The notes: generated by a model not told the origin, from the sequence alone. A stretch of 64,000 nucleotides of DNA from an uncultured Actinomycetes bacterium (GCA_963797565.1 CAWCPM010000002.1:321560-385559); one strand, 5' to 3'. Counted from the first letter of the stretch, positions 33,135 through 46,283 are shown. Translations and numbers: made by a program.

Positions 33135-33186
33135 CCATGCGAACCGATAACGCTCAACCGTCGTACAACAATTACCGACGGAATAG

Positions 33187-33215
33187 TTGCGTTTGCCCGA
33201 AACGTTCTGTATGTT
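33187..33215 (+). promoter_or_regulatory. candidate sigma-70-type promoter TTGCGT-17-TATGTT
   Basis: The -35/-10-like hexamers have 17-nt spacing and sit in the AT-rich stretch after typA, 10 nt before a small ORF (ATG 33226). Confidence 0.35.
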
Positions 33216-33225
33216 GGGAGTCGCA

Positions 33226-33333
33226 ATGACGAAATTGTCTGACATCGAAATGTTCGCCGCCCGATCGACCTCCGTCGATCCGGTGACACATGGCCGGCTG
33301 GATAGCCAGCCCGGCACGGAGGCCCTCGCCTAG
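33226..33333 (+). CDS. possible 35-aa small ORF (MTKLSDIEMFAARSTSVDPVTHGRLDSQPGTEALA)
   Basis: Below the ORF-track cutoff. GGGAG lies 5 nt upstream of the ATG. Followed by hairpin repeat R1. No homology judgement is possible. Confidence 0.25.
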   Translation: MTKLSDIEMFAARSTSVDPVTHGRLDSQPGTEALA

Positions 33334-33371
33334 GACCTGGATTCGAGCAACAGCTCACCACAGGACCACGC

Positions 33372-33397
33372 GAGGGCGACTCACACGAGTCGCCCTC
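33372..33397 (+). repeat. hairpin repeat R1 (gagggcgact-cacacg-agtcgccctc)
   Basis: 10-bp perfect stem. Shares the core GAGGGCGA..TCGCCCTCA(R)TCGTT with R2. Confidence 0.6.
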
Positions 33398-33643
33398 AGT
33401 CGTTAACAACACATCACGCGCGATCCGAACGAAGGACACGAACACCACCATGACCGCGACAACCTTGAACACCGCCATGCTGACCGGCGCCTGGGCGAAA
33501 CACCTCGCCCCTGCGACGCCGCCGCATGCCTGTGATCGGGGTGTCGAAGCCTCTGATACCAGCGTGCAGCCCCGCGCGGACACCCTCATCTCAAGGAGCG
33601 TGCAGACCTAGAAACGGGTCAACGACACGCAATCCGGCGAGAT

Positions 33644-33669
33644 GAGGGCGATCCCAAGGGGTCGCCCTC
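33644..33669 (+). repeat. hairpin repeat R2 (gagggcga-tcccaagggg-tcgccctc)
   Basis: 8-bp outer stem with the same arms as R1. Followed by aatcgttta (R1 is followed by agtcgttaa). Confidence 0.6.
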
Positions 33670-33742
33670 AATCGTTTAAGCCCTCCCAGGTCGGGAGCAT
33701 CAGCAGAGAGGCTCGAATCCTCTCAAGGGCAATCCGGGAAAA

Positions 33743-33856
33743 CCCTGGCGCTGCTGGGGAGGACTCGCACAGTGCCGCAAGGCGTGCGGGGGCCGGCCCT
33801 CCACGAGGAGGAGTCCGGTTGGGAACTCGGGGACCTGACGAGAGAAAACGCCAGGG
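33743..33856 (+). ncRNA. candidate structured RNA of unknown class
   Basis: Nested helices seen by eye: ccctggcg(33743-50)/cgccaggg(33849-56); ggactc(33761-66)/gagtcc(33811-16), which encloses gcc-GCAA-ggc (a GNRA tetraloop hairpin) and cctcc-acga-ggagg. Confidence 0.3.
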
Positions 33857-33916
33857 GACCGATACCGACGGCTGAGAGGGAACTGGAGCTGATGTGCACG
33901 TGGTGAAGTTATTCGC

Positions 33917-33989
33917 GGCGCCGTGACCGAGTGGCTCAGGTAGCAGGTTGCAACCCTGCTCTAGGACGGTTCGATTCCGTCCGGCGCCT
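33917..33989 (+). tRNA. tRNA-Cys(GCA)
   Basis: Acceptor ggcgccg/cggcgcc, anticodon stem gcagg/cctgc with loop ttGCAac, T arm gacgg-ttcgatt-ccgtc. No encoded CCA. Confidence 0.85.
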
Positions 33990-34031
33990 CTCCGGATCCG
34001 CGGGATAGTTGATAGGTAACACCGATACCGT

Positions 34032-34104
34032 GGGGTGGTAGCTGAGACGGTCCAAGCGCCCGGTTGAAGCCCGGGAGACGAGGATTCGAGCGCCTCTCAC
34101 CCCA
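34032..34104 (+). tRNA. tRNA-Phe(GAA), atypical T stem
   Basis: Acceptor ggggtgg/tcacccc, anticodon stem cccgg/ccggg with loop ttGAAgc. T arm gagga-ttcgagc-gcctc has an A-G mismatch at the normally G53-C61 pair. Confidence 0.65.
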
Positions 34105-34119
34105 CCTTTTGACACCTTT

Positions 34120-34191
34120 GGGGGTGTGGCTCAGTGGCAGAGCATCCGCTTGTCGAGCGGTAGGTCGCGAGTTCGATTCTCGCCATCCCCG
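34120..34191 (+). tRNA. tRNA-Asp(GTC)
   Basis: Acceptor gggggtg/catcccc, D stem gctc/gagc, loop ttGTCga, T arm gcgag-ttcgatt-ctcgc. Confidence 0.8.
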
Positions 34192-34216
34192 TGCAGTAAC
34201 GGACGTTTCACCACAC

Positions 34217-34299
34217 ACCGGCATGGCGGAATGGGTAGACGCGCTGGTCTCAGAAACCAGTGGAGATTCTCCGTGGGGGTTCGACTCCCTCTGCCGGTA
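34217..34299 (+). tRNA. tRNA-Leu(CAG), type II
   Basis: Acceptor accggca/tgccggt (A1-U72), D region gcggaatgggtagacgc, anticodon stem ctggt/accag with loop ctCAGaa, long variable arm ggagattctcc, T arm ggggg-ttcgact-ccctc. Confidence 0.85.
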
Positions 34300-34312
34300 C
34301 TCGCTGAGCTTC

Positions 34313-34388
34313 GGGGGATGGGACTGCTGGGAGTGGTCACTCGGTTTGCACCCGGGACTACAGGCGGGTTCGATGCCCGCATCCTCCA
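34313..34388 (+). tRNA. tRNA-Ala(TGC), atypical variable region
   Basis: Acceptor gggggat/atcctcc, anticodon stem ctcgg/ccggg with loop ttTGCac, T arm gcggg-ttcgatg-cccgc. The 7-nt variable region and a one-nt 8-9 connector are unusual. Confidence 0.65.
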
Positions 34389-34408
34389 CTCGCACGTGCA
34401 CGACACTT

Positions 34409-34482
34409 GCCCTCGTAGCTCAATGGACCAGAGTGCCAGGCTTCGAACCTGGTGGTTGGAGGTTCGAATCCTCCCGAGGGCT
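34409..34482 (+). tRNA. tRNA-Arg(TCG)
   Basis: Acceptor gccctcg/cgagggc, D arm tagctcaatggaccagagt, anticodon stem ccagg/cctgg with loop ctTCGaa, T arm ggagg-ttcgaat-cctcc. Confidence 0.88.
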
Positions 34483-34489
34483 TCGCGAT

Positions 34490-34573
34490 GGGGATGCACT
34501 GGGAATGCGGCGATCCCAAGTGGCTGTAAACCACCCGCCTCCGGCTCTGGCAGTTCGACTCTGTCCGTCCCCA
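34490..34573 (+). tRNA. tRNA-Tyr(GTA), type II
   Basis: Acceptor ggggatg/cgtcccc, loop ctGTAaa, variable arm gcc-tcc-ggc, T arm ggcag-ttcgact-ctgtc. Confidence 0.8.
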
Positions 34574-34583
34574 CTCATCAAAT

Positions 34584-34656
34584 GCCTCTGTAGTTCACTG
34601 GACAGAACGCGAGCGTGCGAAGCTCGAGGCCGGAGGTTCGATTCCTCCCAGAGGCG
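34584..34656 (+). tRNA. tRNA-Arg(GCG)
   Basis: Acceptor gcctctg/cagaggc, anticodon stem cgagc/gctcg with loop gtGCGaa, T arm ggagg-ttcgatt-cctcc. G34 rather than the usual bacterial A34. Confidence 0.8.
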
Positions 34657-34666
34657 TGCACCCCAC

Positions 34667-34738
34667 GGCGAGTGGGGTCTGGCGATCCGGCAGCTCTCAT
34701 ACGGCTGCGCCAAGCCGGTTCGATTCCGGCGCTCGCTA
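34667..34738 (+). tRNA. tRNA-Met(CAT)-like, atypical D arm
   Basis: Acceptor ggcgagt/gctcgct (G1-U72 and U7-G66 wobbles), anticodon stem cagct/ggctg with loop ctCATac, T arm gccgg-ttcgatt-ccggc. The D arm folds as 5 bp plus a 4-nt loop. Initiator, elongator or Ile2 identity cannot be decided. Confidence 0.55.
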
Positions 34739-34743
34739 TCCAT

Positions 34744-34818
34744 GGTGGCCGTAGCTCAAAACGGTAGAGCCCCTGGTTGTGGACCAGGCGGTTGCCGGTT
34801 CGAACCCGGCCGGTCACC
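34744..34818 (+). tRNA. tRNA-His(GTG) with encoded G-1
   Basis: G-1 at 34744 opposite C73. Acceptor gtggccg/cggtcac, D stem gctc/gagc, loop ttGTGga, T arm gccgg-ttcgaac-ccggc. Confidence 0.88.
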
Positions 34819-34831
34819 CCTCCTGACACCC

Positions 34832-34903
34832 AGGGGCGTGATGTAAAGGCCAGCATGCGAGGCTCCAACCCTCGTCGTCCGGGTTCGACCCCTGGCGCCC
34901 CTG
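34832..34903 (+). tRNA. tRNA-Trp(CCA)
   Basis: Acceptor aggggcg/cgcccct (A1-U72), anticodon stem cgagg/cctcg with loop ctCCAac, T arm ccggg-ttcgacc-cctgg. The only member followed by CCA (34904-34906). Confidence 0.8.
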
Positions 34904-34923
34904 CCAAGCGCTGCACCACCCCA

Positions 34924-35017
34924 GTCGCGGGCCGACGCACGTCGGTTCTCGTGGACCCACTCACAATGGGGCCGGGTTCGATCCCCGGCATTCCGGCATG
35001 CACCTCATGACCGCGAC
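34924..35017 (+). ncRNA. tRNA-derived RNA 1 (Y-RNA-like paralog; not a functional tRNA fold)
   Basis: Has a 5' acceptor-like strand gggccga, D arm cacg-tcggttct-cgtg, a hairpin with loop ctcacaa and T arm ccggg-ttcgatc-cccgg. It has no variable region and no 3' acceptor strand. The ends gtcgcgg/ccgcgac pair 7/7, and the flanks are shared with element 2. Confidence 0.5.
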
Positions 35018-35036
35018 GCTGACGACGCAAACGCCC

Positions 35037-35170
35037 GACGCGGGCCGACGCGCACTGGTTACCACTGTGAATGGTCCAGGTAGCAGGTTCGACTCCTGCC
35101 CGGCCGGAGCGATCCGGCCAGTAGCTCAACGGTAGAGCGGGAACTCCAGTCCGCACCACATGACCGCGTC
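35037..35170 (+). ncRNA. YrlA-type Y RNA candidate (circularly permuted tRNA-like RNA)
   Basis: Order along the strand: ggtcc, 5-nt aggta, T arm gcagg-ttcgact-cctgc (35083-99), ccggccg, loop gagcgatc, cggccag (a closed acceptor-like helix), ta, D arm gctc-aacggta-gagc (35124-38), g, ggaac. The terminal stem gacgcgg/ccgcgtc pairs 7/7. It ends 36 nt before the rsr ATG. Confidence 0.7.
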
Positions 35171-35206
35171 ATTCCATCCACTCGATCTCCCGAAAGGAGG
35201 CCACCC

Positions 35207-36871
35207 ATGTCGTATCTGACCCGACTCCACAACCTCGCGACCACACAGCGCGAGCGCCTGCGCACCGACCAGGTGCCGAACTCCGAGGGCGGCTACGTCT
35301 GGGAGGTCGACATCTGGACGCGGCTGCGCCGGTTCCTGATCCTCGGCTCCGAGGCCGGCTCGTTCTACGCGTCGGAGCGGAAGCTGACGATCGCAAACAC
35401 ACGAGCGCTCGATGCCTGCATCGAACAGGACGGCGCCCGCACCGTCGAGCTGATCGCCGAGATCAGCGAGGCCGGCCGGGCACCGAAGAACGACCCGGCC
35501 GTGTACGCGCTGGCACGATGCGCGTCGGCGGCCGACGTCGTCACACGCCGGGCGGCGCTGGCAGCCCTGCCGCGAGTGTGCCGAACCGGCACCCACCTGT
35601 TCCAGTTCGCGACCATCGTGAACGAGCAGCGCGGATGGGGCCGGGCGCTGCGGCGCGCGGTGGGAGCGTGGTACGCAGCACGGGACGCGGACGCGATCGC
35701 CTACCAGGCGGTCAAGTACCGCCAGCGGGAGGGGTTCACCCACCGCGACGTGCTGCGGCTCGCGCACCCGGCGCGGCTGGTCTCGGCCGGCAACCCGACG
35801 CTGGACATCTCGACCGAGCAGGCTCGCCTGTTCGAGTGGATCGTCCGGGGCGGGGACACCGACGGGCTGCCGCGCATCGTCGAGGGCTACACCCGCGCAC
35901 AGCGGGCCGGATCGGCCGATGAGGCCGCCCGGCTGGTGCGTGAGTACCAGCTGCCGCGGGAGGCGCTGCCGTCGGAGCACCTGACCAGCTCCGCGGTTTG
36001 GGAGGCGCTGCTCGAGACGATGCCGATGACGGCGATGATCCGGAACCTGGCGACGATGACGCGCGTGGGCCTGCTCACGCCGGGATCGCCGTCGGTGCGG
36101 CTGATCACCGAGCGGCTGTCGGATGGCGCGCGGATCCGCAAGGCCCGCGTCCACCCGATCGCGCTGCTGGTGGCGGCGCGCACCTACGCCTCCGGGCGGG
36201 GTGTCCGCGGCCACGCCTCCTGGACGCCGGTAACCGCCATCGTCGACGCGCTCGACGAGGCCTTCTACCTCGCGTTCGGGAACGTCCAGCCGACCGGCAA
36301 GCGGCTGCTGCTCGCGCTCGACGTGTCGGGGTCGATGACCTTCGGCTCGATTGCGGGCATGCCGGGGCTCACGCCCCGGGACGCATCGGCAGCGATGGCG
36401 CTGGTCACGCTGGCCGTCGAGCGACACGTCGAGGTGGTCGGCTTCCACGCCGGCCGCGGCGGCTGGGTCGCTCGTCGTCGGGGACGGTTCCAGGGGCGCG
36501 CCGACGCCCTCACGCCGCTCCCGCTGTCGGCTCGGCAGCGCCTGGACGACGCGGTCCGCCGCGTGTCCGACCTGCCGTTCGGCGGCACCGACTGTGCCCT
36601 GCCGATGCGCTACGCGCTGGAGCAGGGACGGGCGGTCGACACGTTCGTGATCTACACCGACTCGGAGACCTGGGCTGGGGACATGCACCCGGCCGAGGCG
36701 CTGCGCCGCTACCGCCAGAGCACCGGCATCGCGGCACGGCTGGTCGTGGTCGGAATGGTCGCGAACCGCTTCACCATCGCCGACCCGAACGACGCCGGCA
36801 TGCTCGACGTCGTCGGGTTCGACACCTCGACACCGCAGGTGATCGGCGGGTTCGCCCGTGGCGAGCTGTAA
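35207..36871 (+). CDS. rsr: Ro60-related protein Rsr (TROVE + vWA domains)
   Basis: ..QVPNSEGGYVWEVDIWTRLRRFLILGSEAGSFYASERKLT..ISEAGRAPKNDPAVYALA.. closely follows the Rsr/Ro60 N-terminus as I remember it. The C-terminal vWA domain has a MIDAS motif, LLLALDVSGSM. SD GGAGG is upstream. Confidence 0.85.
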   Translation: MSYLTRLHNLATTQRERLRTDQVPNSEGGYVWEVDIWTRLRRFLILGSEAGSFYASERKLTIANTRALDACIEQDGARTVELIAEISEAGRAPKNDPAVYALARCASAADVVTRRAALAALPRVCRTGTHLFQFATIVNEQRGWGRALRRAVGAWYAARDADAIAYQAVKYRQREGFTHRDVLRLAHPARLVSAGNPTLDISTEQARLFEWIVRGGDTDGLPRIVEGYTRAQRAGSADEAARLVREYQLPREALPSEHLTSSAVWEALLETMPMTAMIRNLATMTRVGLLTPGSPSVRLITERLSDGARIRKARVHPIALLVAARTYASGRGVRGHASWTPVTAIVDALDEAFYLAFGNVQPTGKRLLLALDVSGSMTFGSIAGMPGLTPRDASAAMALVTLAVERHVEVVGFHAGRGGWVARRRGRFQGRADALTPLPLSARQRLDDAVRRVSDLPFGGTDCALPMRYALEQGRAVDTFVIYTDSETWAGDMHPAEALRRYRQSTGIAARLVVVGMVANRFTIADPNDAGMLDVVGFDTSTPQVIGGFARGEL

Positions 36872-36876
36872 CACGG

Positions 36877-36911
36877 CCCGGGCAGGGAGCGTTCGTGACT
36901 CCCTGCCCGGG
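36877..36911 (+). terminator. 13-bp perfect hairpin after rsr (cccgggcagggag-N9-ctccctgcccggg)
   Basis: Starts 6 nt after the rsr stop. No U-tract follows, so it could be a terminator, an attenuator or a processing/stability element. Confidence 0.5.
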
Positions 36912-36933
36912 GGCGGTCGAACGGCACGCACCT

Positions 36934-37006
36934 GGACGCATAGCTCAGCAGGTAGAGCGCTCGCCCGACATGCGAGAGGTGCCAGGTTCGACCCCTGGTG
37001 CGTCCA
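36934..37006 (+). tRNA. tRNA-Val(GAC) with C33
   Basis: Acceptor ggacgca/tgcgtcc, D arm tagctcagcaggtagagc, anticodon stem ctcgc/gcgag with loop ccGACat (C rather than U at position 33), T arm ccagg-ttcgacc-cctgg. Confidence 0.7.
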
Positions 37007-37008
37007 TT

Positions 37009-37082
37009 GCCCGCGTAGCTCAGAGGATGAGAGCGCTCCGCTCCTACCGGAGAAGCCGCACGTTCGAGTCGTGCCGCGGGCG
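37009..37082 (+). tRNA. tRNA-Arg(CCT)
   Basis: Acceptor gcccgcg/cgcgggc, anticodon stem ctccg/cggag with loop ctCCTac, T arm gcacg-ttcgagt-cgtgc. Only 2 nt after tRNA-Val. Confidence 0.88.
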
Positions 37083-37085
37083 CCT

Positions 37086-37158
37086 GGGGTCATAGCTCAA
37101 CTGGCAGAGCGCCCGGCTCTTAACCGGGAGGTTGGGGGATCGTTGCCCTCTGACCCCA
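37086..37158 (+). tRNA. tRNA-Lys(CTT), non-canonical T loop
   Basis: Acceptor ggggtca/tgacccc, D arm tagctcaactggcagagc, anticodon stem cccgg/ccggg with loop ctCTTaa. T arm ggggg-atcgttg-ccctc, where A and U replace the usual T54 and A58. Confidence 0.7.
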
Positions 37159-37178
37159 TCTGCGGGTCTGCACATCGT

Positions 37179-37262
37179 GGAAGCGATCCGGCTGGATCAG
37201 GAGCCTGTCTCGAAAACAGGTAGGAGGGTCACCTCTTGGGCGTTCGAGTCGCCCCGCTTCCG
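37179..37262 (+). tRNA. tRNA-Ser(CGA), type II
   Basis: Acceptor ggaagcg/cgcttcc, anticodon stem cctgt/acagg with loop ctCGAaa, long variable arm aggagggtcacctctt, T arm gggcg-ttcgagt-cgccc. Confidence 0.85.
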
Positions 37263-37321
37263 CTCGCCTTCGCGGTCTTCGACGGCATCCGGCCGACGCG
37301 GTGGCCCGGTAGAGTCGCGCG

Positions 37322-37909
37322 ATGGCAGACTTTGAGTGCGCAGTCGTTGCCGAGTCTGAGCGAGATCGGGCGACTCGCGTCCTGGTGTCGGCGTTCGAGG
37401 ATGACCCTGTTGAGCGCTGGCTCTATCCGGATGACGCCGTCTATCGAGACCATTTTCCGGCGTTCATCGCGGCGTTCGGCGGTGACGCGTTCCACGATCA
37501 GACCGTCTGGCGGCTGGGGGATTTCGACGCGGTGGCGTTCTGGTTTGCGCCGGGGCGCGAGCCAGATGGCGCCGCGGTGGTACGAGTACTGGTGGAGACG
37601 ACTGCCGAACATCTGCACGCTGATTCGTTCGCGACGTTGGAGCAGATGGCCGAGGGGCATCCCGCAGGCCAGCACTGGTACCTGCCGTGGTTTGGAGTGC
37701 AGCGCACCCTCCAGGGACGGGGACTCGGCACGCATCTCATGCGCCACTGCCTGGAGATCGTGGACGCGAGTGGCTTCCCGGCGTACCTGGAGACGCCGAA
37801 CCCGCGAACCGTGCCGTTCTACGAGCGCGCCGGATTCACGGTCACCGGGACTGCTCAGGCGGGAGCCTGCCCTCCGATCACCATGATGCAGCGGGCCCCG
37901 CGCAGATAG
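37322..37909 (+). CDS. GNAT family N-acetyltransferase
   Basis: Acetyl-CoA motif ..VQRTLQGRGLGTHLM.. and C-terminal ..YLETPNPRTVPFYERAGF... Confidence 0.8.
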   Translation: MADFECAVVAESERDRATRVLVSAFEDDPVERWLYPDDAVYRDHFPAFIAAFGGDAFHDQTVWRLGDFDAVAFWFAPGREPDGAAVVRVLVETTAEHLHADSFATLEQMAEGHPAGQHWYLPWFGVQRTLQGRGLGTHLMRHCLEIVDASGFPAYLETPNPRTVPFYERAGFTVTGTAQAGACPPITMMQRAPRR

Positions 37910-37954
37910 CGCGACTGCACGCGCGAGGCGCCCTTGACGACGGTGCCGGGAACG

Positions 37955-38042
37955 GGATGGGTGGCAGAGTGGGAATGCAGCGCCCTGCTACGGCGTAGGC
38001 CGGCCGCGAGCCGGTCCGCGGGTTCGATCCCCGCCCCATCCG
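37955..38042 (+). tRNA. tRNA-Ser(GCT), type II
   Basis: Acceptor ggatggg/cccatcc, anticodon stem gcgcc/ggcgt with loop ctGCTac, long variable arm ggccggccgcgagccggtc, T arm gcggg-ttcgatc-cccgc. Confidence 0.85.
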
Positions 38043-38056
38043 TCGACGCATGACTT

Positions 38057-38128
38057 TCCGGAGTGGCCGAGTGGACAGGCGCACGGTTGTTACCCGTGAC
38101 CACGTGGGTTCGATCCCTACCTCCGGAG
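38057..38128 (+). tRNA. tRNA-Asn(GTT)
   Basis: Acceptor tccggag/ctccgga (U1-A72), anticodon stem cacgg/ccgtg with loop ttGTTac, T arm gtggg-ttcgatc-cctac. Confidence 0.8.
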
Positions 38129-38139
38129 CTGGCTCAAAA

Positions 38140-38215
38140 GGGGGGCAGGTGTCCGTGGTCTTCGGCACGCTCGTCTGATACGCGAGAGGGCTTGGTTCGA
38201 CTCCAGGGTCCCCCA
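38140..38215 (+). tRNA. tRNA-Ile(GAT)
   Basis: Acceptor ggggggc/gtccccc, large 12-nt D loop, anticodon stem ctcgt/gcgag with loop ctGATac, T arm cttgg-ttcgact-ccagg. Confidence 0.78.
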
Positions 38216-38220
38216 CTCGA

Positions 38221-38291
38221 TGCGAGGTCGTCTAACGGCAGGACGCCTGGCTCTGACCCAGGTAATCGGGGTTCGAAACCCTGCCTCGCAG
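38221..38291 (+). tRNA. tRNA-Gln(CTG)
   Basis: Acceptor tgcgagg/cctcgca (U1-A72, as in bacterial tRNA-Gln), anticodon stem cctgg/ccagg with loop ctCTGac, T arm cgggg-ttcgaaa-ccctg. Confidence 0.82.
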
Positions 38292-38298
38292 CCATCAC

Positions 38299-40369: not shown

Positions 40370-43300
40370 TTACGACAGGGAGACGGTTGCGCTGCCCGTG
40401 TAGTCGTTGTACGGGTCGAGCACGATCGTGTAGGTGCCGGCCACCGGCGCCGTCAGCCCGAACGAGGTCGAGCCCAGCACCCACGACGGCGACAGCAGCG
40501 CCGTGCCGTCCGGACGCAGCACCGAGACGCGCATGATCGGGACGCTGACCGCGCTCAGGTTCAGCATCAGCGACTGCCCGGCCGTGGCAGTGAACGTGAC
40601 CGCCCCACCCTGGCCGGGAGCATTCATCGCAGCCGTGAACCCAGGCCCGCCCTGCGTGATCGACCCGGCCGCATCCGGCGGCACGTCGTAGACGGTCACC
40701 GACAACGGTCCTGTTGAGGCGTCGAACGGATCCACGGCGATGGTGTAGGTGCCGGACACCGGCAGCGTGGTCACGTCGATGAAGGTGTTACCCGGCGCCA
40801 TGGTCGCGAGCAGGATCGTGGCGTCCGGCTTGCTGACGGTGAACCGCACCGACATCGCCGTCGTGAGGCGGAAGCTGACCCGCTCGCCGGCCACGCCGTT
40901 GAAGCTGACGAGCCCGTTCTGGCCGGGCACCGTGATCGGGATCGAGGCCGCGGCGCCGCCGGGCGTGGTCGTCGCAGACGCGTCGGCCGGGACGCTGAAG
41001 GCGGTCAGCGTCATCGTCACCGCCGAGCCGCCCGACGGGTCGATCACGATCGTGTAGGTGCCGGTGGCCGGCAGCGTGTGGGTGTCGAGGAAACCGCCCG
41101 ACGAGGAGACGTAGAAGGTCGCGAAGATGGAGCCGTCCGGCGCGCGCACATCGAGCCGCGTCTGCGGCAGCGCGCTGCCGGTGACCGTCATGCTCATCCG
41201 CGTGCCGGCCACCCCGGCGAACGTGATGCCGGCGTTCTGTCCGGCGCCCAGCGAGATCGTGAGCGGCGCTCCGCCCACGGTGATGCTGCCGGTGAGATCG
41301 ACCGGCACACCCAGCACCTGGACGGTGGCGCTGCCCACCGCCGCCCCCTGCGGATCGATGCGGATCGTGTAGGTGCCGCTGGCCGGAAGCGCGATCGCGT
41401 CGATGAAGCCGCCCGAGCCGTAGGCGATGGTGGAGCCCGCAGGTGACACCAGCGTCACCGACGTGGCGGCCATGCCGGAGGTGCTGTAGCTGACGCTGAC
41501 CGACTGGCCGGCCGCGCCCGGGAACGTGACCGAGGCGTTCTGGCCGGGCACCGTGGTGGTGAGCGTGACCGGTGCTGCTGCCACCGAGGTGGTCGCCGTC
41601 GGATCGGGCGGCACGTCGTACAGCGTGTAGCTGACGCTGCCGGTGCCGACGTCCTGGGGGTCGGCCACCACCGTGTAGGTGCCGGTCTGCTTGAGCGTGG
41701 CCGCGTCCACGAACGAGGTGCCGGCGCCGGTGTAGCCCGGCCCCGCGAGCACCGTGCCGTCCGGGTTCAGGATCGACGTCTTCAGCAGGTAGAAGGTGGA
41801 GCTGACACCGAGGCTGACGCGCCGGCCGGCCACGCCGCTGAACGTGAACAGCGCGTTCTGGCCCGCCGCCGTTGTGGTGGCCGACGCGGGAGCGCCGCCC
41901 GGCGTGATGGTGGTCGTGACGTCGGGCGGCACGTCGTAGAGCGTCAGCGTGACCGGCCCGGTGCGCTCGTCCTGTGGGTCGGCCAGGATCGTGTACGTGC
42001 CGTCGGAGGGCAGCTGCACGGTGTCGATGAAACCGTTGCCGGCGCTCGTGTAGAGCGGCCCCGCCAGCTGCGTCCCGCCCGGCCCGATGATGATCGTCTT
42101 CAGGAAGCTGATGCTGCTGGACGTGGCCAGCGCCACCCGCCGCCCGGCCGCGCCCGTGAAGCTGGCGACCGCGTTCTGGCCGGGCACGGTGGTGGTCAGC
42201 GTCACCGGAGGCCCGCCGGGGCTGATCGCCGCCGTCGCATCCGGCGGCACGTTGAAGAGCTGGATCGCCATGCTGCCGCCGCCCGCCTGCAGCGGGTGCA
42301 CGCGCACCACGTAGCTGCCGGACTGCTGCAGCGTGAACGAGTCGATGAACGCGCTGCCGGTGGACAGCGTCTTCGAGGCGGCCGTGGACCCGTCCGGGTT
42401 GCTGATGGTGACGGTGCTGCTGGTGATCGTCGACGCCGACAGCAGGGCGCTCACGCGCGTGCCGGCGGTGCCGTCGAAGGCGAGCAGCTGGTCCTCGCCG
42501 GCACCCGAGGTGACGGTGACCGGCGCTCCGCCGATCACGATCGGGCTCGGCGATACGCCGGTGACGCTGCCGCTGTCGGTGCCGCCGCTGCTGGTGGCCG
42601 TGGCGGTAACGGTGGTGCTGCCCGGGGCGGGCGTGAACTGGCCGGTGTAGCTGCCGTCGCCCTGGGCCGTCAGCGCGACCGGCTGGCCGTTGGCGGCCGC
42701 GGTGACGGTCACGCCCGCGAGGTCGCCGCAGACGCCGGCCAGCAGGCGCACGGTCACCGGGTGGCCGGCGGCGGCCACGAAGCCCTGGCCGGGAGCGTCG
42801 ATCACCAGCTGCGGCTTGTTGCTGCAGGTGAGCGCGTTTCCGGCGTCGAGACGGCCCTGGCTGGCGCTGGTGCCGGCGAGTGCCGCGGGGCGGTCGACCG
42901 TGCGCAGCAGCAGCGCCTTGATGGTGTCGGCGGTGGCGGCCGGATGCGCGGCCAGCACCAGCGCGGCCGCACCGGCCACGTGAGGCGAGGCCATCGAGGT
43001 GCCGCTCTCGGACTTGTAGGCCTTGCCCGGCCAGGTCGAGTAGATGCTGACGCCGGGCGCCGCCAGATCGACGCTGCTCTGCCCGTAGTTCGAGAAGTAG
43101 GCGAGATGGTCGGTCGAGTCGCTGGCACCCACCGAGATGATGTTGGGCAGATCGAAGTCGGCCGGGTAGGTGGGCGTCGTATCGCTGTTCGTGCCGTCGT
43201 TGCCTGCAGCGGCAACGAACAGGTCGCCGTGCGCGTTCGCGTCGGCGATGGCGTCATACAGGGCCTGCGAGTACTCGGTGTCGCCCCAGGAGTTGTTCGT

Positions 43301-44209
43301 GATGCGCACGCCCATGGCGGTCGCATACCGCAGCGCGGCGACCGCGCCGGCCACGTCGCCGGTGCCGTCGGCGCCGATGAACTTGAGCGGCATCAGCTGC
43401 ACGTTCCAGTTGACCCCGGTGACGCCGGTGCCGTTGTTGCCGACCGCACCGATGGTGCCGGACACGTGGGTGCCGTGCCCGTTGTCGTCGGTCGGGTTGT
43501 TGTCGTTGTTGATGAAGTCCCAGCCGCGCCAGTCATCGACGTAGCCGTTGTGGTCGTTGTCGATGCCGTCGTTGCGGCAGCCGGGGCAGTTCTCGCCGGG
43601 GTTGATCCACATGTTCGCGGCCAGGTCGGGATGGGCGGCATCGATGCCGGTGTCGATCACGCCCACGACCACCGACTTCTTGCCCGTGGTGACGCCCCAG
43701 GCCCGCTCCGCTCCGATGTCGGCGCCCGGCGTGCCGGCTGCGAAGTCGACGGTCTGGCCGGTGTTGTTGAGGCCCCACTCCTTCTTGAACTGGGGATCGT
43801 TCGGCACCGGGTTGGCGAATAGGTGGATCGTGCGGTCGGGCTCGACGTAGCTGACGTCGGCGTTGCCCTCGAGCAGCGAGATGGCGCGCGCGGACGCGCG
43901 CGGCGCGACCGTTGCCAGCTGCACGCGGGCGCTGCCCAGAGCGGTGCCGGTGCCGGCTCCGGCCGCAGCCAGCGCCTGCTTGCGGTCGCCGGCCGAAACG
44001 CCGTGCCGGAAGCCCACGATCAGCTTGCCCGGTATCACCACGGACGCCTGCGGCGCCGGTGCGCACGGGGGCATGGCGCACACCGGCCGTCGCCCGTCCG
44101 CCTGCGCCGGACACGACAACCGAGAGCACGACCACCAAAGCGGCAACGCGAAGACCCCGAGCCATGCTCCCACGCTACATGTGCAACATGGGCGTGGCAA
44201 TCCTCGCAT
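40370..44209 (-). CDS. secreted S8 (subtilisin) family serine peptidase with about seven tandem C-terminal beta-domains
   Basis: Catalytic motifs VGVIDTGID, HGTHVSG and GTSMASPHVAG, followed by repeated modules of about 100 aa. Confidence 0.85.
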   Translation of the reverse strand: MRGLPRPCCTCSVGAWLGVFALPLWWSCSRLSCPAQADGRRPVCAMPPCAPAPQASVVIPGKLIVGFRHGVSAGDRKQALAAAGAGTGTALGSARVQLATVAPRASARAISLLEGNADVSYVEPDRTIHLFANPVPNDPQFKKEWGLNNTGQTVDFAAGTPGADIGAERAWGVTTGKKSVVVGVIDTGIDAAHPDLAANMWINPGENCPGCRNDGIDNDHNGYVDDWRGWDFINNDNNPTDDNGHGTHVSGTIGAVGNNGTGVTGVNWNVQLMPLKFIGADGTGDVAGAVAALRYATAMGVRITNNSWGDTEYSQALYDAIADANAHGDLFVAAAGNDGTNSDTTPTYPADFDLPNIISVGASDSTDHLAYFSNYGQSSVDLAAPGVSIYSTWPGKAYKSESGTSMASPHVAGAAALVLAAHPAATADTIKALLLRTVDRPAALAGTSASQGRLDAGNALTCSNKPQLVIDAPGQGFVAAAGHPVTVRLLAGVCGDLAGVTVTAAANGQPVALTAQGDGSYTGQFTPAPGSTTVTATATSSGGTDSGSVTGVSPSPIVIGGAPVTVTSGAGEDQLLAFDGTAGTRVSALLSASTITSSTVTISNPDGSTAASKTLSTGSAFIDSFTLQQSGSYVVRVHPLQAGGGSMAIQLFNVPPDATAAISPGGPPVTLTTTVPGQNAVASFTGAAGRRVALATSSSISFLKTIIIGPGGTQLAGPLYTSAGNGFIDTVQLPSDGTYTILADPQDERTGPVTLTLYDVPPDVTTTITPGGAPASATTTAAGQNALFTFSGVAGRRVSLGVSSTFYLLKTSILNPDGTVLAGPGYTGAGTSFVDAATLKQTGTYTVVADPQDVGTGSVSYTLYDVPPDPTATTSVAAAPVTLTTTVPGQNASVTFPGAAGQSVSVSYSTSGMAATSVTLVSPAGSTIAYGSGGFIDAIALPASGTYTIRIDPQGAAVGSATVQVLGVPVDLTGSITVGGAPLTISLGAGQNAGITFAGVAGTRMSMTVTGSALPQTRLDVRAPDGSIFATFYVSSSGGFLDTHTLPATGTYTIVIDPSGGSAVTMTLTAFSVPADASATTTPGGAAASIPITVPGQNGLVSFNGVAGERVSFRLTTAMSVRFTVSKPDATILLATMAPGNTFIDVTTLPVSGTYTIAVDPFDASTGPLSVTVYDVPPDAAGSITQGGPGFTAAMNAPGQGGAVTFTATAGQSLMLNLSAVSVPIMRVSVLRPDGTALLSPSWVLGSTSFGLTAPVAGTYTIVLDPYNDYTGSATVSLS
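40373..42560 (-). repeat. tandem coding repeats (about 7 x about 300 bp) inside the S8 peptidase gene
   Basis: The protein-level period is ..[YF][DNS]VP[PAV]D..[ST]I..GG.P......PGQN....F.G.AG.R.S...........PDG.........FID...L...GTYT...DP.....G...... Confidence 0.7.
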
Positions 44210-44312
44210 GGGGGATCATTCGGGGCACTCGGATCGGTTGACGTTGGGTGAATGCGGGTACTCCGATCTGGTGATGGTGAACGGCCTCGAACATCGGCAC
44301 ACTGGCGCCTCA

Positions 44313-44882
44313 ATGAGGCTCCAAACTCAACGCTCCGCCGGCGATCCGGCAACCGTCGCCGCGGCCGTACGCGACGCTGCGCTGGTGCTGGTCGCCGTGC
44401 AGCAGGTCGACCAGCGGGCGGCGCTCGACCGCGAGCGGCCCGCTCCGACGCCGTCGGAGGTGGCGGAACTGCGCGACGCCGCGCGAGCGGCCGGCGCGCG
44501 CCTGGCCGGCCTCACCGACGGCGGGTCAGCCGTGCTGCTCGAGTATCTGCATGCAAGCCGGGCTCACCTCGCCGGCCGGGCAGGGGCACAGGATGCCATC
44601 CAGGTCGCCACCCACGAGCTGTGGCGCTGCTTCGACCGGCCGATCGCGGCCCTGGTCGGGTTCTGCGCGAACGCGGACGTCGACCTCACGCGCTCGCTGG
44701 ACGCGCCGGGTCGGATCACGCTCTGCTCTACCGACGACTTCATCGTCTGCTGCTGCCGCCTGGCCGAGCAGGGCGCGTACGCCACCTGGCCGTCGGTGGC
44801 GATGGCGCTGCGTCACACCATGCAGCTGATGATCAGCACGCACGCGGCCATGGACGCGGCGTACCCCGACGCGGCCGTCTGA
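44313..44882 (+). CDS. hypothetical 189-aa protein upstream of rtcB
   Basis: ATG at 44313 in ORF 43863..44882. Ala/Leu-rich and helical, with a Cys cluster ..FIVCCCRL... No family recognised. Confidence 0.4.
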   Translation: MRLQTQRSAGDPATVAAAVRDAALVLVAVQQVDQRAALDRERPAPTPSEVAELRDAARAAGARLAGLTDGGSAVLLEYLHASRAHLAGRAGAQDAIQVATHELWRCFDRPIAALVGFCANADVDLTRSLDAPGRITLCSTDDFIVCCCRLAEQGAYATWPSVAMALRHTMQLMISTHAAMDAAYPDAAV

Positions 44883-44930
44883 CCGCGAGATCATCCACAA
44901 TCGGATATCAACGCCCCGGAAGGAGGCGAC

Positions 44931-46283
44931 ATGACCGACCGGCCGGCAACCACGATGGTGGTCGAGGATCGGCCCTACCGCGAGCTCGACGACGGGCTGA
45001 TCGGTGTCTACGGCTACACCTACGACGAGCAGGCGATCACCCAGATCCGCACCGTGTCGCGGCACGGCTGGGTGGCCGGCGCGTCGCTGATGGCCGACAA
45101 CCACGTCGGCTACTCGATGCCGATCGGCGGAGTCGCCGCGTACCGCGAGATGGTCTCGCCCTCGGGCGTCGGCTACGACATCGGCTGCGGCGTGATGGCG
45201 GTGCGCACGGCGCTATCGATCGACGAGGTGCGGGGCGACCTGGGACGGCTGGCCGACGAGATCGCGCGCGGCCTCAGCTTCGGGGTCGGCCGCAAGAATG
45301 CCACCCGCGTCGAGCACCGGCTGTTCGACTCGGAGACATGGGCCGCGGTCCCGGAGCTGACCGAGCAGGTCGCCGGGCGCAAGGGCTCGTGGTCGCTGCG
45401 GGAGCGCGCGGAGGCGCAGCTGGGCACGGTCGGATCCGGCAACCACTACGTCGACCTGCTGGTCGAGCCGGCCGACGGCGCGGTCTGGATCGCCGCACAC
45501 TTCGGCAGCCGCGGCTTCGGCCACGGTGTGGCGACGGGCTTCCTGAACGTCGCAGCGGGCCGCGAGTTCCACGCCGGGCAGATCAGCGGCGAGTCGATGC
45601 ACGCCGTGCCGTCGCTGCTGCCGCTATCGGAGGCGGCGGCGGTCGAGCTCGGCTACGCCGACCCGGCCTGGGCGGCGGAGCAGGGCCGCCGGTATCAGCA
45701 GGCGATGGTGCTGGCCGGCGAGTACGCCTATGCCGGGCGGGAGTACGTGATCTCGGAGGTGCTGGGCATGTTGGGAGCTCCGGAGGTGGTCGAGACGGTG
45801 CACAACCACCACAACTACGCGTGGGATGAGGAGCACGCCGGCGAGCAGCTGCACGTGGTTCGCAAGGGCGCGACGCCCGCGTTCCCGGGCCAGACCGGGT
45901 TCATCGGCGGCTCGATGGGTGACTGGGCGGTCGTGGTCGAGGGCGTCGAGTCGGACCTGGCGGCACGGACCTTCCGCTCGACGGTGCACGGGGCGGGACG
46001 GGTTATGAGCCGCTCCAAGGCTAAGGGCAACCGCAAGGGCACCTTCAAGGGCCTGATCAGCCGGCAGATGATGGCCGAGCGGCTGCATGAGTTCCGAGCC
46101 GAAACCGGCTCGCCGCTCGAGGTGCGAGGCGGCGACGTGGACGAGTCGCCGTTCGTGTACCGGAAGCTGGACGAGGTCGTGCGGGCGCACGAGCAGACCG
46201 ACACCATCAAGGTCACCCATCGGCTGCTGCCGATCGTGGTCGTGATGGCGGGCGCCGACGTGCACGATCCGTTCAAGGACTAG
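44931..46283 (+). CDS. rtcB: RNA 3'-phosphate/5'-OH ligase RtcB
   Basis: ..ADNHVGYSMPIGGV.., ..GYDIGCG.., ..GSGNHY.., ..HNHHNY.., ..GSMG.. metal and guanylylation-site motifs. SD GGAAGGAGG is upstream. Confidence 0.9.
   Translation: MTDRPATTMVVEDRPYRELDDGLIGVYGYTYDEQAITQIRTVSRHGWVAGASLMADNHVGYSMPIGGVAAYREMVSPSGVGYDIGCGVMAVRTALSIDEVRGDLGRLADEIARGLSFGVGRKNATRVEHRLFDSETWAAVPELTEQVAGRKGSWSLRERAEAQLGTVGSGNHYVDLLVEPADGAVWIAAHFGSRGFGHGVATGFLNVAAGREFHAGQISGESMHAVPSLLPLSEAAAVELGYADPAWAAEQGRRYQQAMVLAGEYAYAGREYVISEVLGMLGAPEVVETVHNHHNYAWDEEHAGEQLHVVRKGATPAFPGQTGFIGGSMGDWAVVVEGVESDLAARTFRSTVHGAGRVMSRSKAKGNRKGTFKGLISRQMMAERLHEFRAETGSPLEVRGGDVDESPFVYRKLDEVVRAHEQTDTIKVTHRLLPIVVVMAGADVHDPFKD

Follow-up and report, generated by a model that had tools for sequence, protein, structure and literature searches.

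Do the tRNA genes, RNase P-like RNA, Ro60 orthologue (Rsr), Y RNAs, GNAT acetyltransferase, cyclase-domain protein and RtcB that crowd one region of a Gaiellales (actinobacterial) chromosome form a single module? The initial annotation of the 64,000-nucleotide stretch analysed here, which we call the window, took them for a self-contained system that supplies, processes, surveys and repairs tRNA. Part of this proposal stands: the tRNA set, rsr and the Y RNAs are supported as a discrete, conserved and dispensable unit, not a chance neighbourhood. The membership of the GNAT protein, the cyclase and RtcB does not stand.

A dispensable island between bipA and a cyclase gene

The unit occupies a 5.9-kb island between bipA and the cyclase gene (Table 1). 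L222, a Gaiellales MAG with flanks 91–95% identical to the window in nucleotide sequence, aligns with window 31267–33135 and 38994–40220; its gap measures only ~17–55 nt, and no tRNA was found at the corresponding site. Since bipA, the cyclase gene and the S8 protease gene directly adjoin in this close relative, the segment is a dispensable island, and its boundaries are established. The first reading had seen no integrase or transposase and had left mobility unproven. None turned up in the surveyed ORFs of the window either, and we found no target-site duplication or mobility gene for the island, yet the comparison with relatives shows the segment to be an indel. A consensus scan of 33100–40450, which omits actinobacterial promoter types, returned no sigma-70-like promoter and no intrinsic terminator.

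Table 1. Features of the island and its neighbourhood (window coordinates).
Feature	Position	Strand	Basis or remark
Accessory island, whole	33136–38985	+	Indel relative to close relative L222
Conserved non-coding leader RNA, array head	33680–33900	+	Sequence conservation; no Rfam family
tRNA block 1: Cys, Phe, Asp, Leu(CAG), Ala(TGC), Arg(TCG), Tyr(GTA), Arg(GCG), Met, His, Trp	33917–34906	+	ARAGORN, except Tyr (~34490–34575)
Y RNA 1	34924–35017	+	Closing helix, T-arm-like hairpin, weak Deinococcus_Y_RNA match (Rfam)
Y RNA 2, YrlA-like, with tRNA-like domain	35037–35170	+	Partial Rfam YrlA match, closing module
rsr (Ro60 orthologue, TROVE + vWA)	35207–36871	+	Pfam, NCBIfam
GC-rich hairpin directly 3' of rsr	36877–36912	+	Read from sequence
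tRNA block 2: Val(GAC), Arg(CCT), Lys(CTT), Ser(CGA)-like cloverleaf	36933–37262	+	ARAGORN, except Ser(CGA) (~37176–37262)
GNAT acetyltransferase, passenger inside array, not a conserved component	37322–37909	+	Pfam
tRNA block 3: Ser(GCT), Asn, Ile(GAT), Gln(CTG), Glu(CTC), Pro(CGG), Thr(TGT)	37955–38550	+	ARAGORN
Divergent RNase P RNA homologue	38559–38881	+	Rfam RF00010
tRNA-Gly(TCC), final gene of island	38895–38968	+	ARAGORN
Class III cyclase-domain protein, resident chromosomal gene outside island	39031–40266	+	Beside bipA and S8 in L222
tRNA-Val(CAC), separate small indel (40221–40370) between cyclase and S8 genes	40296–40369	+	Absent at site in L220, L221, L222
S8 protease gene, 3.8 kb, resident	40370–44209	−	Present in island-less L222
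189-aa ORF (44313–44882) and rtcB (44931–46283)	44313–46283	+	Pfam RtcB

Supernumerary tRNA genes under structural selection

ARAGORN called 22 tRNA genes, all on the plus strand from 33917 to 40369; the rest of the 64 kb yielded none. The program overlooked two further cloverleafs: tRNA-Tyr(GTA), which differs in one nucleotide from a copy that it did call in L005, and the Ser(CGA)-like gene, the orthologue of which was called in L088. Together these genes represent all 20 amino acids, bearing out the full tRNA set on one strand that had been noticed at the outset. Val(CAC), which here stands apart, follows Val(GAC) in the L001 and L064 arrays.

The array tRNAs are strongly unlike canonical tRNAs in sequence; those for Ala and Met are unrecognised by the Rfam tRNA model, and that for Ile scores 17.7 bits. 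Are they decaying? We compared the window with the diverged L001 array across 21 same-anticodon pairs comprising 471 stem pairs. Unchanged pairs numbered 273, while 118 carried compensatory changes on both sides, 39 a one-sided change that kept pairing, and 41 were broken. The 118 compensatory and 39 one-sided pair-preserving changes, set against 41 broken pairs, place the array tRNAs under structural selection and establish the structural integrity of the array. Measured on 21 window genes, the anticodons read the top codon for 17 of 20 amino acids, and 74% of all codons. They cannot read GGC (70% of Gly codons), ACC, GCC, CCC or CUC, so that the set is supernumerary and not sufficient; Gly(GCC) has been lost from the window copy.

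A Ro60–Y RNA cassette within the array

The rsr gene is an intact ORF of 554 aa preceded by a strong ribosome-binding site (AAGGAGG). Its product contains TROVE (E = 7e-46) and vWA_Ro60 (E = 2e-60) domains in Pfam, and matches the NCBIfam Rsr model at 573 bits (E = 4e-172), short of the equivalog cut-off of 900. The hairpin that follows is possibly a processing or termination site. Y RNA 1 is closed by the helix 5' GUC-GCGGGCCGACGC / 3' CAUGACCGC-GAC. Y RNA 2 matches Rfam YrlA in part, over 35075–35143 (35.4 bits, E = 3e-5; threshold 69), and has the same closing module (GCGGGCCGACG ... CAUGACCGC in both units) with a covarying outer stem, GAC/GUC; among RNAs upstream of rsr, this stem covaries at no fewer than 10 loci. 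The assignment of both units as Y RNAs is supported, and rsr with two Y-like RNAs, as originally described, is upheld.

Y RNAs mimic tRNAs and are encoded beside rsr, and RNase P cleaves one of them (PMC4201824). The window resembles the bacterial Ro60 (Rsr)–Y RNA modules (Chen et al. 2014, PMC4201824), which include the Salmonella rsr-yrlBA-rtcBA operon, in its TROVE plus vWA Rsr, in two Y RNAs immediately upstream, in a Ro-binding helix related to the GNCGAA(N)G motif, and in the tRNA-like domain of one Y RNA. Unlike those modules, its cassette is embedded in a tRNA array and is apparently part of the array's transcription unit; unlike the Salmonella operon, it is without rtcB, and neither RtcR nor RtcA was seen.

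A divergent RNase P RNA homologue

The RNA first annotated as rnpB matches RF00010, bacterial RNase P class A, over its full length but very weakly (23.5 bits; curated threshold 100), whereas normal RNase P RNAs of equal size and with the same motif variant scored 190–250 bits in our calibration. P1–P5 and the conserved motifs CR-I (GAGGAAGGUCCGG) and CR-V (ACAGAAUCCGGCCUAUCG) are intact, and in the alignment both motifs are identical to those of canonical RNAs. The sequence is compatible with helices P1, P2, P3, P5 and P15, GAGCAA is present, P15 bears GGU, and the length of 323 nt falls in the natural range of the class. It differs from class A in its score below threshold, in a specificity domain of ~155 nt that is unalignable save for the remnants GCAACAG and GGUGAAAC, in having no P18, and in its location within a dispensable island. 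No homologue was found in ~2 Mb of related loci, and no such RNA in the other arrays examined. The rnpB call is only partly confirmed: judged by sequence, this is a real but divergent RNase P-like RNA with a canonical catalytic core. Because it sits inside a dispensable island, it is presumably a second copy.

A conserved core in related arrays

Which parts of the island recur elsewhere? In L001 and L064, an array with the same leader, similarly ordered tRNA genes, two Y RNAs and rsr is flanked by unrelated metabolic genes. The two clades have most anticodons in common and largely retain the tRNA order, so that the gene-order conservation raised as a check in the initial annotation is found for the leader, the tRNAs, the Y RNAs and rsr. 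The GNAT gene, cyclase, RtcB and RNase P-like RNA do not belong to this core. The leader is 76% identical overall between the window and L001/L064, with identical blocks of 60 nt and more, and is better conserved than the array tRNAs. Its indels between the clades do not come in multiples of 3, the fold predicted by RNAalifold has several stems but few covariations, no Rfam family matches, and our covariance model R1 of it finds matches only in five Gaiellales-type arrays. In L088 the same array also follows bipA, but an integrase element interrupts it, and Y1, Y2 and rsr have been lost, a loss that shows the cassette to be dispensable. The composition and conservation of the island are established.

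The association of rsr with tRNA arrays extends further. We surveyed 79 species-level rsr loci, picked as relatives of the window Rsr, many of them on MAG contigs with taxon labels that may be wrong. At 35 of the 79, at least five same-strand tRNA genes lie within 3 kb of rsr, and at 27 tRNAs flank it on both sides; Rsr inside a tRNA array occurs in several phyla. HNH endonuclease homologues occur in 30 of these loci and RtcB in 11–14. Genes for RtcB, RNA ligase, kinase/phosphatase and HNH are physically linked to rsr–tRNA arrays in Verrucomicrobiota and others, with a full RNA-repair set at L034; Gaiellales-type arrays have no HNH gene.

Alternative explanations

Could the array tRNAs act mainly as decoys, sponges or nuclease-resistant substitutes against tRNA-cleaving toxins or anticodon nucleases, with Rsr and Y RNA clearing the fragments, and not as a general stress back-up? 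Enzymes that heal and seal RNA ends, of the kind that counters anticodon nucleases, abound in related arrays, phage tRNAs evade tRNA-targeting defences (PMC11555353), a sponge role has been proposed for the Anabaena array (PMC8421152), and the sequences of the array tRNAs are far from canonical. However, searches with the island's proteins detected no toxin, anticodon nuclease or defence-system protein, and the island itself contains no ligase or kinase; we regard this explanation as unlikely.

The island might instead be the decaying, functionless relic of a tRNA cluster borne by a phage or mobile element, its aberrant tRNAs and RNase P RNA being pseudogenes. Ro homologues of 35–51% identity occur in 359 actinophage records, and the Ro gene of Streptomyces phage Paradiddles, the only tRNA-rich phage we examined, is flanked by tRNA genes and adjoins an HNH gene. 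The poor scores of several array tRNAs and of the RNase P-like RNA fit decay, as do the lineage losses of Gly(GCC) in the window, of rsr and Y RNAs in L088 and of the entire island in L222. The window resembles tRNA-rich, Ro-encoding actinophages (Mycobacterium cluster C, Streptomyces Samistivirus and others) in the Ro homologue and, for Paradiddles, in its place amid tRNA genes, but the examined window ORFs, including those on either side of the island, yielded no phage structural, replication or integrase genes, tRNA spacing is far tighter in the window, and DNA-level similarity is confined to single tRNAs. No close DNA relative was found in phage or plasmid collections. The preserved stem pairing, the largely retained tRNA order, a leader better conserved than the tRNAs, the intact rsr with its ribosome-binding site and the fit of the anticodons to host codon preference also argue against decay, and make a relic distinctly unlikely.

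An integrated module, in which tRNA acetylation by the GNAT protein, signalling by the cyclase and religation by RtcB would operate jointly with the tRNAs, the RNase P RNA and Rsr, is improbable on several counts. Every gene does lie within 13 kb, and Pfam confirms the GNAT protein, the Guanylate_cyc domain protein, the minus-strand S8 protease and RtcB as first reported. RtcB is linked to rsr–tRNA arrays elsewhere, the window protein being 45% identical to the RtcB directly downstream of rsr in L013, and a resident rtcB near the insertion site by chance would be unlikely a priori. But GNAT orthologues (73–86% identity) occur outside arrays in other Gaiellales, with no array in L082–L087; the gene is also array-internal in L088. 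It matches no toxin-type family, nor does any of the island's proteins match a GNAT-toxin family or defence-system model. In other Gaiellales, cyclase orthologues (84–87% nucleotide identity) are also found outside arrays, with no tRNAs in L218–L221, and the cyclase and S8 genes stand beside bipA in L222, where the island is missing. The rtcB gene is not on the island: 8 kb separate it from rsr, and the resident S8 gene, on the opposite strand, intervenes. Its partner, the 189-aa ORF correctly noted to precede it, has no Pfam or NCBIfam family and belongs to a conserved family narrow in lineage (88–96% identical); the two probably form a separate resident operon. The L001/L064 core, moreover, has neither the GNAT, cyclase and RtcB genes nor the RNase P-like RNA.

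That the island is the organism's housekeeping tRNA operon with a normal rnpB is barely credible, for although each of the 20 amino acids has a tRNA and the anticodons suit codon usage, GGC, ACC, GCC, CCC and CUC are undecodable, L222 lacks the entire segment between closely matching flanks, and the RNase P RNA is far under its family threshold.

A probable accessory tRNA array with a Ro60 cassette

We favour, at a probability of about 0.6, the reading of the island as an accessory L-array with a Ro60–Y RNA cassette in its conserved core. Long arrays have been described as "tRNA array units" (Tran et al. 2016, PMC4758250; Morgado & Vicente 2018, PMC5966550) and "L-arrays" (Santamaria-Gomez et al. 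2021, PMC8421152). As the last of these studies describes them, L-arrays are supernumerary sets gained by horizontal transfer, with linkage to rtcB and HNH genes and induction under translational stress (PMC8421152). The window shares with these systems at least 20 same-strand tRNA genes at more than 2 per kb, a non-periodic and supernumerary set, patchy occurrence among close relatives and embedded protein genes; their linkage to HNH endonuclease and rtcB is matched in loci related to the window. Unlike them, the window-type core adds rsr, two Y RNAs and a conserved structured leader, the window copy has a divergent RNase P RNA, and Gaiellales-type arrays are without HNH. The combination had been thought undescribed; cyanobacteria were already known to have long accessory tRNA arrays that are linked to rtcB and share its regulation (PMC8421152), but Ro, Rsr, TROVE and RNase P RNA go unmentioned in the tRNA-array papers that could be searched.

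The conserved core comprises the structured leader, ~24 tightly spaced same-strand tRNA genes, one or few per amino acid and tuned to preferred host codons, and the mid-array Ro60 cassette of two Y RNAs and rsr; the GNAT passenger and the divergent RNase P RNA paralogue are further gains of the window lineage. By analogy with L-arrays, Rsr/Y RNA and RNase P, we infer co-transcription, induction and the biochemical roles of the island as follows. Transcription from the leader may yield one or few polycistronic precursors. The host's RNase P, its RNase Z or 3' exonucleases and its CCA-adding enzyme would release tRNAs from them, possibly with help from the RNase P RNA of the island in complex with host RnpA. 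The same processing would free the flanked Y RNAs, and Rsr, made from its own ribosome-binding site, would then bind them. With an exonuclease such as PNPase, the Rsr–Y RNP may carry out quality control or decay of misfolded or damaged pre-tRNAs and tRNAs, and the supernumerary tRNAs would sustain translation when translational stress, tRNA-targeting toxins or phage deplete or damage the housekeeping pool.

Results

A dispensable tRNA island between bipA and a cyclase gene

The window has a G+C content of ~70%, and the public contigs most closely related to it come from Gaiellales MAGs (class Thermoleophilia, Actinomycetota). The Rsr protein of one related contig, L005, is 98% identical to that of the window, and the flanks of L222, a MAG without the island (GCA_035473255.1), and of L088, a sibling array without rsr, match the window at 91-96% DNA identity. 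L222 aligns over 31267-33135 (bipA, 95%) and then from 38994 (cyclase, 91%), with a short intergenic stretch and no tRNA gene between the two genes. Because L222 runs from bipA to the cyclase gene without tRNA genes, window 33136 to ~38985 is a dispensable island of 5.85 kb. The alignment picks up again at 40371 (S8 protease gene, 93%), omitting 150 nt that hold a tRNA-Val(CAC). This tRNA is also missing at the cyclase-S8 position from the related contigs L220 and L221; it is a satellite of the island, placed beyond the resident cyclase gene.

Is the island a prophage or an integrative element? Over ~24-58 kb, the ORFs examined have typical chromosomal functions (peptidases, dehydrogenases, BipA/TypA, a histidine kinase and the like), and Pfam scans of 20 ORFs spanning this region revealed no integrase, transposase, recombinase or phage structural gene. 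No direct repeats were found to flank the island, and its junctions show no duplication when compared with L222. The initial annotation, which had seen no integrase, transposase or direct repeats, was right on this point: with no integrase, recombinase or structural gene among the ORFs scanned and no attachment-site repeats found, the island does not qualify as either kind of element. No transfer mechanism is evident for Gaiellales-type arrays.

Features of the island and its surroundings, in window coordinates
Feature	Position	Strand	Remarks
Hairpin, two copies	33372-33404; 33643-33680		between bipA and the leader
Non-coding leader	33680-33900 (core 33727-33891)	+	head of the array; candidate new structured or regulatory RNA
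tRNA genes called by ARAGORN (22)	33917-40369	+	
Type II tRNA-Tyr(GTA)	~34490-34575	+	missed by ARAGORN; one base from the L005 orthologue, which ARAGORN calls
Y RNA 1	34924-35017	+	directly upstream of rsr; very weak match to the Rfam Deinococcus Y RNA
Y RNA 2	35037-35170	+	directly upstream of rsr; partial Rfam YrlA match in the tRNA-like part
Ser(CGA)-like cloverleaf	~37176-37262	+	atypical D-arm; missed by ARAGORN; near-identical orthologue called in L088
RNase P-like RNA	38559-38881	+	full-length, very weak match to RNase P class A (RF00010)
Tandem repeats in S8 gene	40396-42350	-	seven repeats of ~315 nt (~105 aa) in the C-terminal half of the protease
ORF189	44313-44882	+	189 aa, upstream of rtcB; no family assigned

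The tRNA genes are maintained yet supernumerary

All 22 tRNA genes called by ARAGORN lie on the forward strand, with none elsewhere in the window, and 19 exceed the Rfam threshold. These genes bear out the tRNA array of the initial annotation; two more cloverleafs, Tyr(GTA) and Ser(CGA)-like, are missed by ARAGORN. L-arrays, the long accessory tRNA gene arrays of the literature, have at least 20 tRNA genes at two or more per kb in a single orientation. The island stretch 33917-38968 (5.05 kb) holds 21 ARAGORN calls plus the two extra cloverleafs, more than 4 per kb and all in forward orientation. Among the 22 called genes, a 3' CCA is encoded only in those for Trp and Gln. Most of the array tRNAs end without CCA and have C-U-C or U-C after the discriminator base; this trailer recurs, and could be a signal for processing.

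We compared 21 same-anticodon pairs of tRNAs, with 471 consensus stem pairs, between the window and L001, a more distant array. Unchanged stem pairs number 273; 39 have a one-sided change and are still paired, 118 carry compensatory changes on both sides, and 41 are broken, in part through alignment or boundary artefacts. The array tRNA-Ala keeps G3:U70. Measured against the codon usage of 21 window genes, the array anticodons read the commonest codon for 17 of 20 amino acids and cover 74% of codons; GGC, ACC, GCC, CCC and CUC are unreadable by them. The stem-pair changes, the codon match and the unreadable codons together argue for a tRNA set that is host-adapted and structurally maintained, yet supernumerary. 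The array is also dispensable and patchy among close relatives, as L-arrays are, being absent from L222, rearranged in L088 and found in another chromosomal context in L001 and its fellow clade member L064. A linked HNH homing endonuclease, a frequent but not obligatory L-array feature, is lacking: no HNH homologue was found in the window, L001, L064, L088, L005 or L002. L-arrays are further characterised by silence during normal growth and induction under translational stress.

Two Y RNAs precede rsr

Pfam assigns TROVE (E 7e-46) and vWA_Ro60 (E 2e-60) domains to the window Rsr, that is, the TROVE ring and C-terminal vWA/MIDAS of an Rsr module; the NCBIfam Rsr model gives it 573 bits, under the equivalog cut-off of 900. 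The two Y-like RNAs proposed beside rsr hold up, in that they share a covarying closing module, 5' GCGGGCCGACG ... CAUGACCGC 3', whose outer pairs are swapped yet complementary (GUC/GAC in one unit, GAC/GUC in the other). Y RNA 2 scores 35.4 bits as YrlA, short of the Rfam gathering score of 69, and the match is confined to its tRNA-like domain. The same module lies directly upstream of rsr in ten related loci (L001, L002, L004, L005, L040, L060, L064, L066, L075 and L247), where its outer stems contain 3-6 covarying pairs. In L005 and L002 the module reads GCCGAAG, which fits the Ro-binding motif GNCGAA(N)G of Chen et al. 2014 (PMC4201824). We accept these elements as two Y RNAs next to rsr, with a conserved predicted Ro-binding helix.

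ARAGORN calls a "tRNA-Arg" just upstream of rsr in two of the related loci. That of L002 (9356-9433) overlaps a Y RNA (9359-9492) and resembles its tRNA-like domain, and that of L075 (9773-9847) directly adjoins a Y RNA; tRNA counts beside rsr can therefore include Y RNA domains. Weak matches to the Rfam nematode stem-bulge RNA (ceN72-3/ceN74-2) occur just downstream of rsr in two Polyangiaceae contigs (L010, 2854-2922; L025, 3504-3600), and the viral contig L242 has a YrlA-like match and a tmRNA-like fragment upstream of rsr (8300-8841).

Sibling arrays delimit a portable core

L088 matches the window at 96% identity from bipA across the leader to the 11th tRNA. Its tRNA-Trp is followed by tRNA-Gly(GCC) and then directly by tRNA-Val(GAC), without Y RNAs or rsr, and GNAT is retained inside the array. 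A tyrosine-integrase element (11071-12974) sits right after tRNA-Glu in the place of the distal tRNAs, so that array tRNAs serve as integration targets. In L005 the order is Trp, Gly(GCC), Y RNAs, rsr. Because the more distant L001/L064 clade also has rsr within its array, rsr is ancestral; L088 has lost rsr, and the window Gly(GCC).

The arrays of L001 and L064 (Rsr 75-76% identical to that of the window) span ~4.2 kb and comprise the leader, a similar tRNA order, two Y RNAs, rsr and then 2-3 more tRNAs. They are flanked by arginine deiminase, DUF1348 and cupin genes on one side and by Exo_endo_phos, Rieske and epoxide hydrolase genes on the other; bipA, GNAT, cyclase, RtcB, RNase P-like RNA and integrase were all absent from this locus. 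The conserved unit therefore consists of leader, tRNAs, Y RNAs and rsr.

The leader is more conserved than the array tRNAs: the two array clades share identical blocks of over 60 nt in it, and overall identity is 76%. Its 5' part resembles a mini tRNA-like element, the T-arm of which shows compensatory changes. No Rfam family matched the leader, its invariant core had no match in viral contigs, and a covariance model was run over 1.84 Mb and found no copies beyond five Gaiellales-type arrays. A consensus scan of 33100-40450 for sigma-70-like promoters and intrinsic terminators, which does not extend to actinobacterial promoter types, found nothing. A hairpin (GAGGGCGA...UCGCCCUCA, then UCGUU) occurs twice in the stretch from bipA to the leader, and its second copy is kept in L001 and L064. 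A terminator, an attenuator or a binding site are candidate roles for the pair.

rsr recurs inside tRNA arrays

How general is this arrangement? Among 79 rsr loci of species-representative genomes, retrieved as relatives of the window Rsr, 35 have at least five same-strand tRNAs within 3 kb and 27 have tRNAs on both sides; the corresponding counts for 29 rsr loci of IMG/VR viral contigs are three and one. The array-bearing loci are labelled Actinomycetes, Verrucomicrobiota, Polyangia (Myxococcota), Chloroflexia (Chloroflexota) and Bacteriovoracaceae (Bdellovibrionota), labels that may be wrong for MAGs. An HNH endonuclease family recurs in 30 rsr loci, and RtcB is found in 11-14. The initial annotation had proposed a survey of relatives for joint occurrence of rsr, rnpB and tRNA arrays. 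The rsr-array pairing recurs, in the 35 of 79 loci; the RNase P-like RNA was found in the window only among the loci scanned.

In a Verrucomicrobiota MAG (L034, 6500-21500), rsr inside a tRNA array is followed by a Metallophos phosphoesterase, HNH, two RtcB paralogues and an R2K ATP-grasp protein, and further by an Rnl-type RNA ligase, an HD plus AAA_33 kinase protein and a methyltransferase. By its predicted gene content, this set is a complete RNA end-healing and sealing island. The Leifsonia sp. Leaf264 locus (L069, 1-14400) has rsr amid 31 tRNA genes, with a tmRNA gene at one of its ends and, on the other strand, a SAM-IV riboswitch; its tRNAs score as canonical, and it may represent a different, housekeeping-like arrangement. 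In each of two IMG/VR contigs, L244 and L246, an rsr homologue is surrounded by 41 tRNA genes in a stretch of 21 kb; both contigs also have an HNH homologue. Ro is encoded in 359 actinophage records, and the Ro gene of Streptomyces phage Paradiddles has tRNA genes around it and an HNH gene next to it. Searches of phage and plasmid DNA with array block 1 returned single-tRNA similarity only.

A divergent RNase P-like RNA in the window

The gene first annotated as rnpB scores 23.5 bits on RF00010 against a gathering threshold of 100 (E ~1e-4 to 1e-5, depending on search size). P1, P2 and P3 are present. CR-I (GAGGAAGGUCCGG), P5 with GAGCAA, a P15-like helix with GGU, AUAGAUGGAUG and CR-V (ACAGAAUCCGGCCUAUCG) follow in the right order and spacing, and in a MAFFT alignment CR-I and CR-V are identical to those of canonical RNAs. 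By cmscan alignment, MAFFT alignment and a constrained fold, the RNA thus has the predicted catalytic-domain core (P1-P4, CR-I, CR-IV, CR-V and P15 with the CCA-binding GGU). Judged by sequence, homology to RNase P RNA is not in doubt, and to that extent the annotation stands; its plain rnpB label is harder to keep with a score so far under threshold and ~155 nt at the position of the S-domain (P7-P14) that do not align. GCAACAG and GGUGAAAC are the only recognisable remnants there, and P18 is missing.

The A-to-G variant of CR-I is common in nature, as seen in metagenome and viral contigs, a scan of which with GAGGAAGGTCCGGNCTC returned 129 loci. At least 85 of these look like ordinary RNase P RNAs with CR-V at the normal distance; none of the 129 lies near a tRNA array or is close to the window copy. 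Twelve of the ordinary RNAs, 311-348 nt long, score 191-248 bits on RF00010, which rules out shortness or G+C richness as the cause of the low score. No homologue was found in ~2 Mb of related loci, where a motif scan of all loci returned the window copy only; an E-value scan with Rfam of L001, L002, L242, L010 and L025 and a gathering-score scan of six array loci gave no RNase P match. L222 has no island, and RNase P is essential, so that another RNase P must exist in the lineage of L222; the window RNA is most likely a second copy. We consider it less likely than not that this copy is active with host RnpA.

Protein genes in and around the array

Pfam confirmed the protein genes initially annotated here: rsr, GNAT, a class III cyclase domain protein, a 1279-aa S8 protease on the reverse strand, and RtcB. 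The inclusion of GNAT and cyclase in one module with the array did not survive. GNAT orthologues with 73-86% identity occur in varied array-free contexts (L082-L087), cyclase orthologues with 84-87% nucleotide identity are likewise array-free (L218-L221), and, with orthologues mostly in such contexts, we reject both as array components. A single contig, JGI 3300043313, seems to share the layout GNAT, 1.1-kb gap, cyclase, S8. GNAT matched none of the NCBIfam toxin-type acetyltransferase families, and PADLOC defence models gave no match to GNAT, cyclase, Rsr, RtcB or ORF189. The repeats of the S8 protease are presumably Ig-like domains, and probably account for the breaks of related contigs within the S8 gene.

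The rtcB gene lies 8 kb from rsr, past the island tRNAs, the cyclase gene and the resident S8 gene on the opposite strand, and the ORFs scanned to both sides include neither RtcA nor RtcR. The island differs in this from the Salmonella-type rsr-yrlBA-rtcBA system, in which rtcB(A) is co-oriented and contiguous with rsr and RtcR acts as sigma-54 activator. ORF189 has 61 family members, nearly all 88-96% identical and without a Pfam domain, which suggests a core gene of the lineage rather than island cargo; with rtcB it probably forms a resident operon apart from the island. Its lineage is narrow, yet it is more conserved than the neighbouring genes; possibly it is an RtcB partner.

Discussion

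The island is an accessory L-array with a conserved Ro60-Y core, dispensable and relocated among relatives, whose tRNAs are maintained and codon-adapted. For the overall reading, mechanism included, we estimate a probability of about 60%. Transcription would be polycistronic and start from the leader, and the tRNA-processing machinery would release the tRNAs and the Y RNAs flanked by them. By analogy with the Rsr-Y-PNPase complex of Deinococcus, the Rsr-Y RNP may act on defective pre-tRNAs or tRNAs. The array could then serve as a reserve of tRNAs when translation is stressed or tRNAs come under attack, a physiological role shown for the L-array of Anabaena (PMC8421152).

A more far-reaching reading, which we consider unlikely, gives the island its own functional RNase P ribozyme and makes it a self-processing, portable package of tRNAs and Ro60. 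The specificity domain of this ribozyme would have been remodelled to suit the array's closely spaced and in part non-canonical pre-tRNAs as well as tRNA-like Y RNAs. If true, the RNA would to our knowledge be the first RNase P RNA of an accessory or mobile kind observed in bacteria. More broadly, bacterial Ro60-Y RNPs would have evolved within tRNA arrays: Y RNAs would descend from array tRNAs, and pre-tRNAs would be the native Ro substrates. As it stands, the window holds a candidate second, divergent RNase P RNA that, if active, would be informative on how much change the specificity domain tolerates.

What is new in an accessory L-array with a Ro60-Y core? tRNA array units or L-arrays are known as horizontally acquired, supernumerary, non-periodic and often HNH-linked, and those of cyanobacteria as associated with rtcB, sharing its regulation and responding to translational stress by induction (PMC4758250, PMC5966550, PMC6582537, PMC8421152). 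These four papers do not mention Ro, Rsr, TROVE, Y RNA or an RNase P RNA within an array. According to Chen et al. 2014, over 250 species and phages have Y RNAs beside rsr, and Y RNAs mimic tRNA; a term search of that paper found no mention of tRNA arrays or clusters (PMC4201824). Within the literature searched, the link between rsr and arrays thus appears unreported. The array itself is of a known kind; what is new here, within that literature, is its conserved cassette of Ro and Y RNAs, its leader and its RNase P paralogue.

The targets of bacterial Ro60 and Y RNAs, and the reason why Y RNAs mimic tRNA, are open problems in the field. In Actinomycetota, rsr and Y RNAs form a conserved core inside accessory tRNA arrays, and the layout recurs in contigs labelled as other phyla. 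This offers a link: the Ro RNP may be a quality control for array pre-tRNAs, and array tRNAs may be the source of Y RNAs. The concept of the L-array would widen accordingly, from a store of spare tRNAs to one that brings along its own genes for surveillance and repair.
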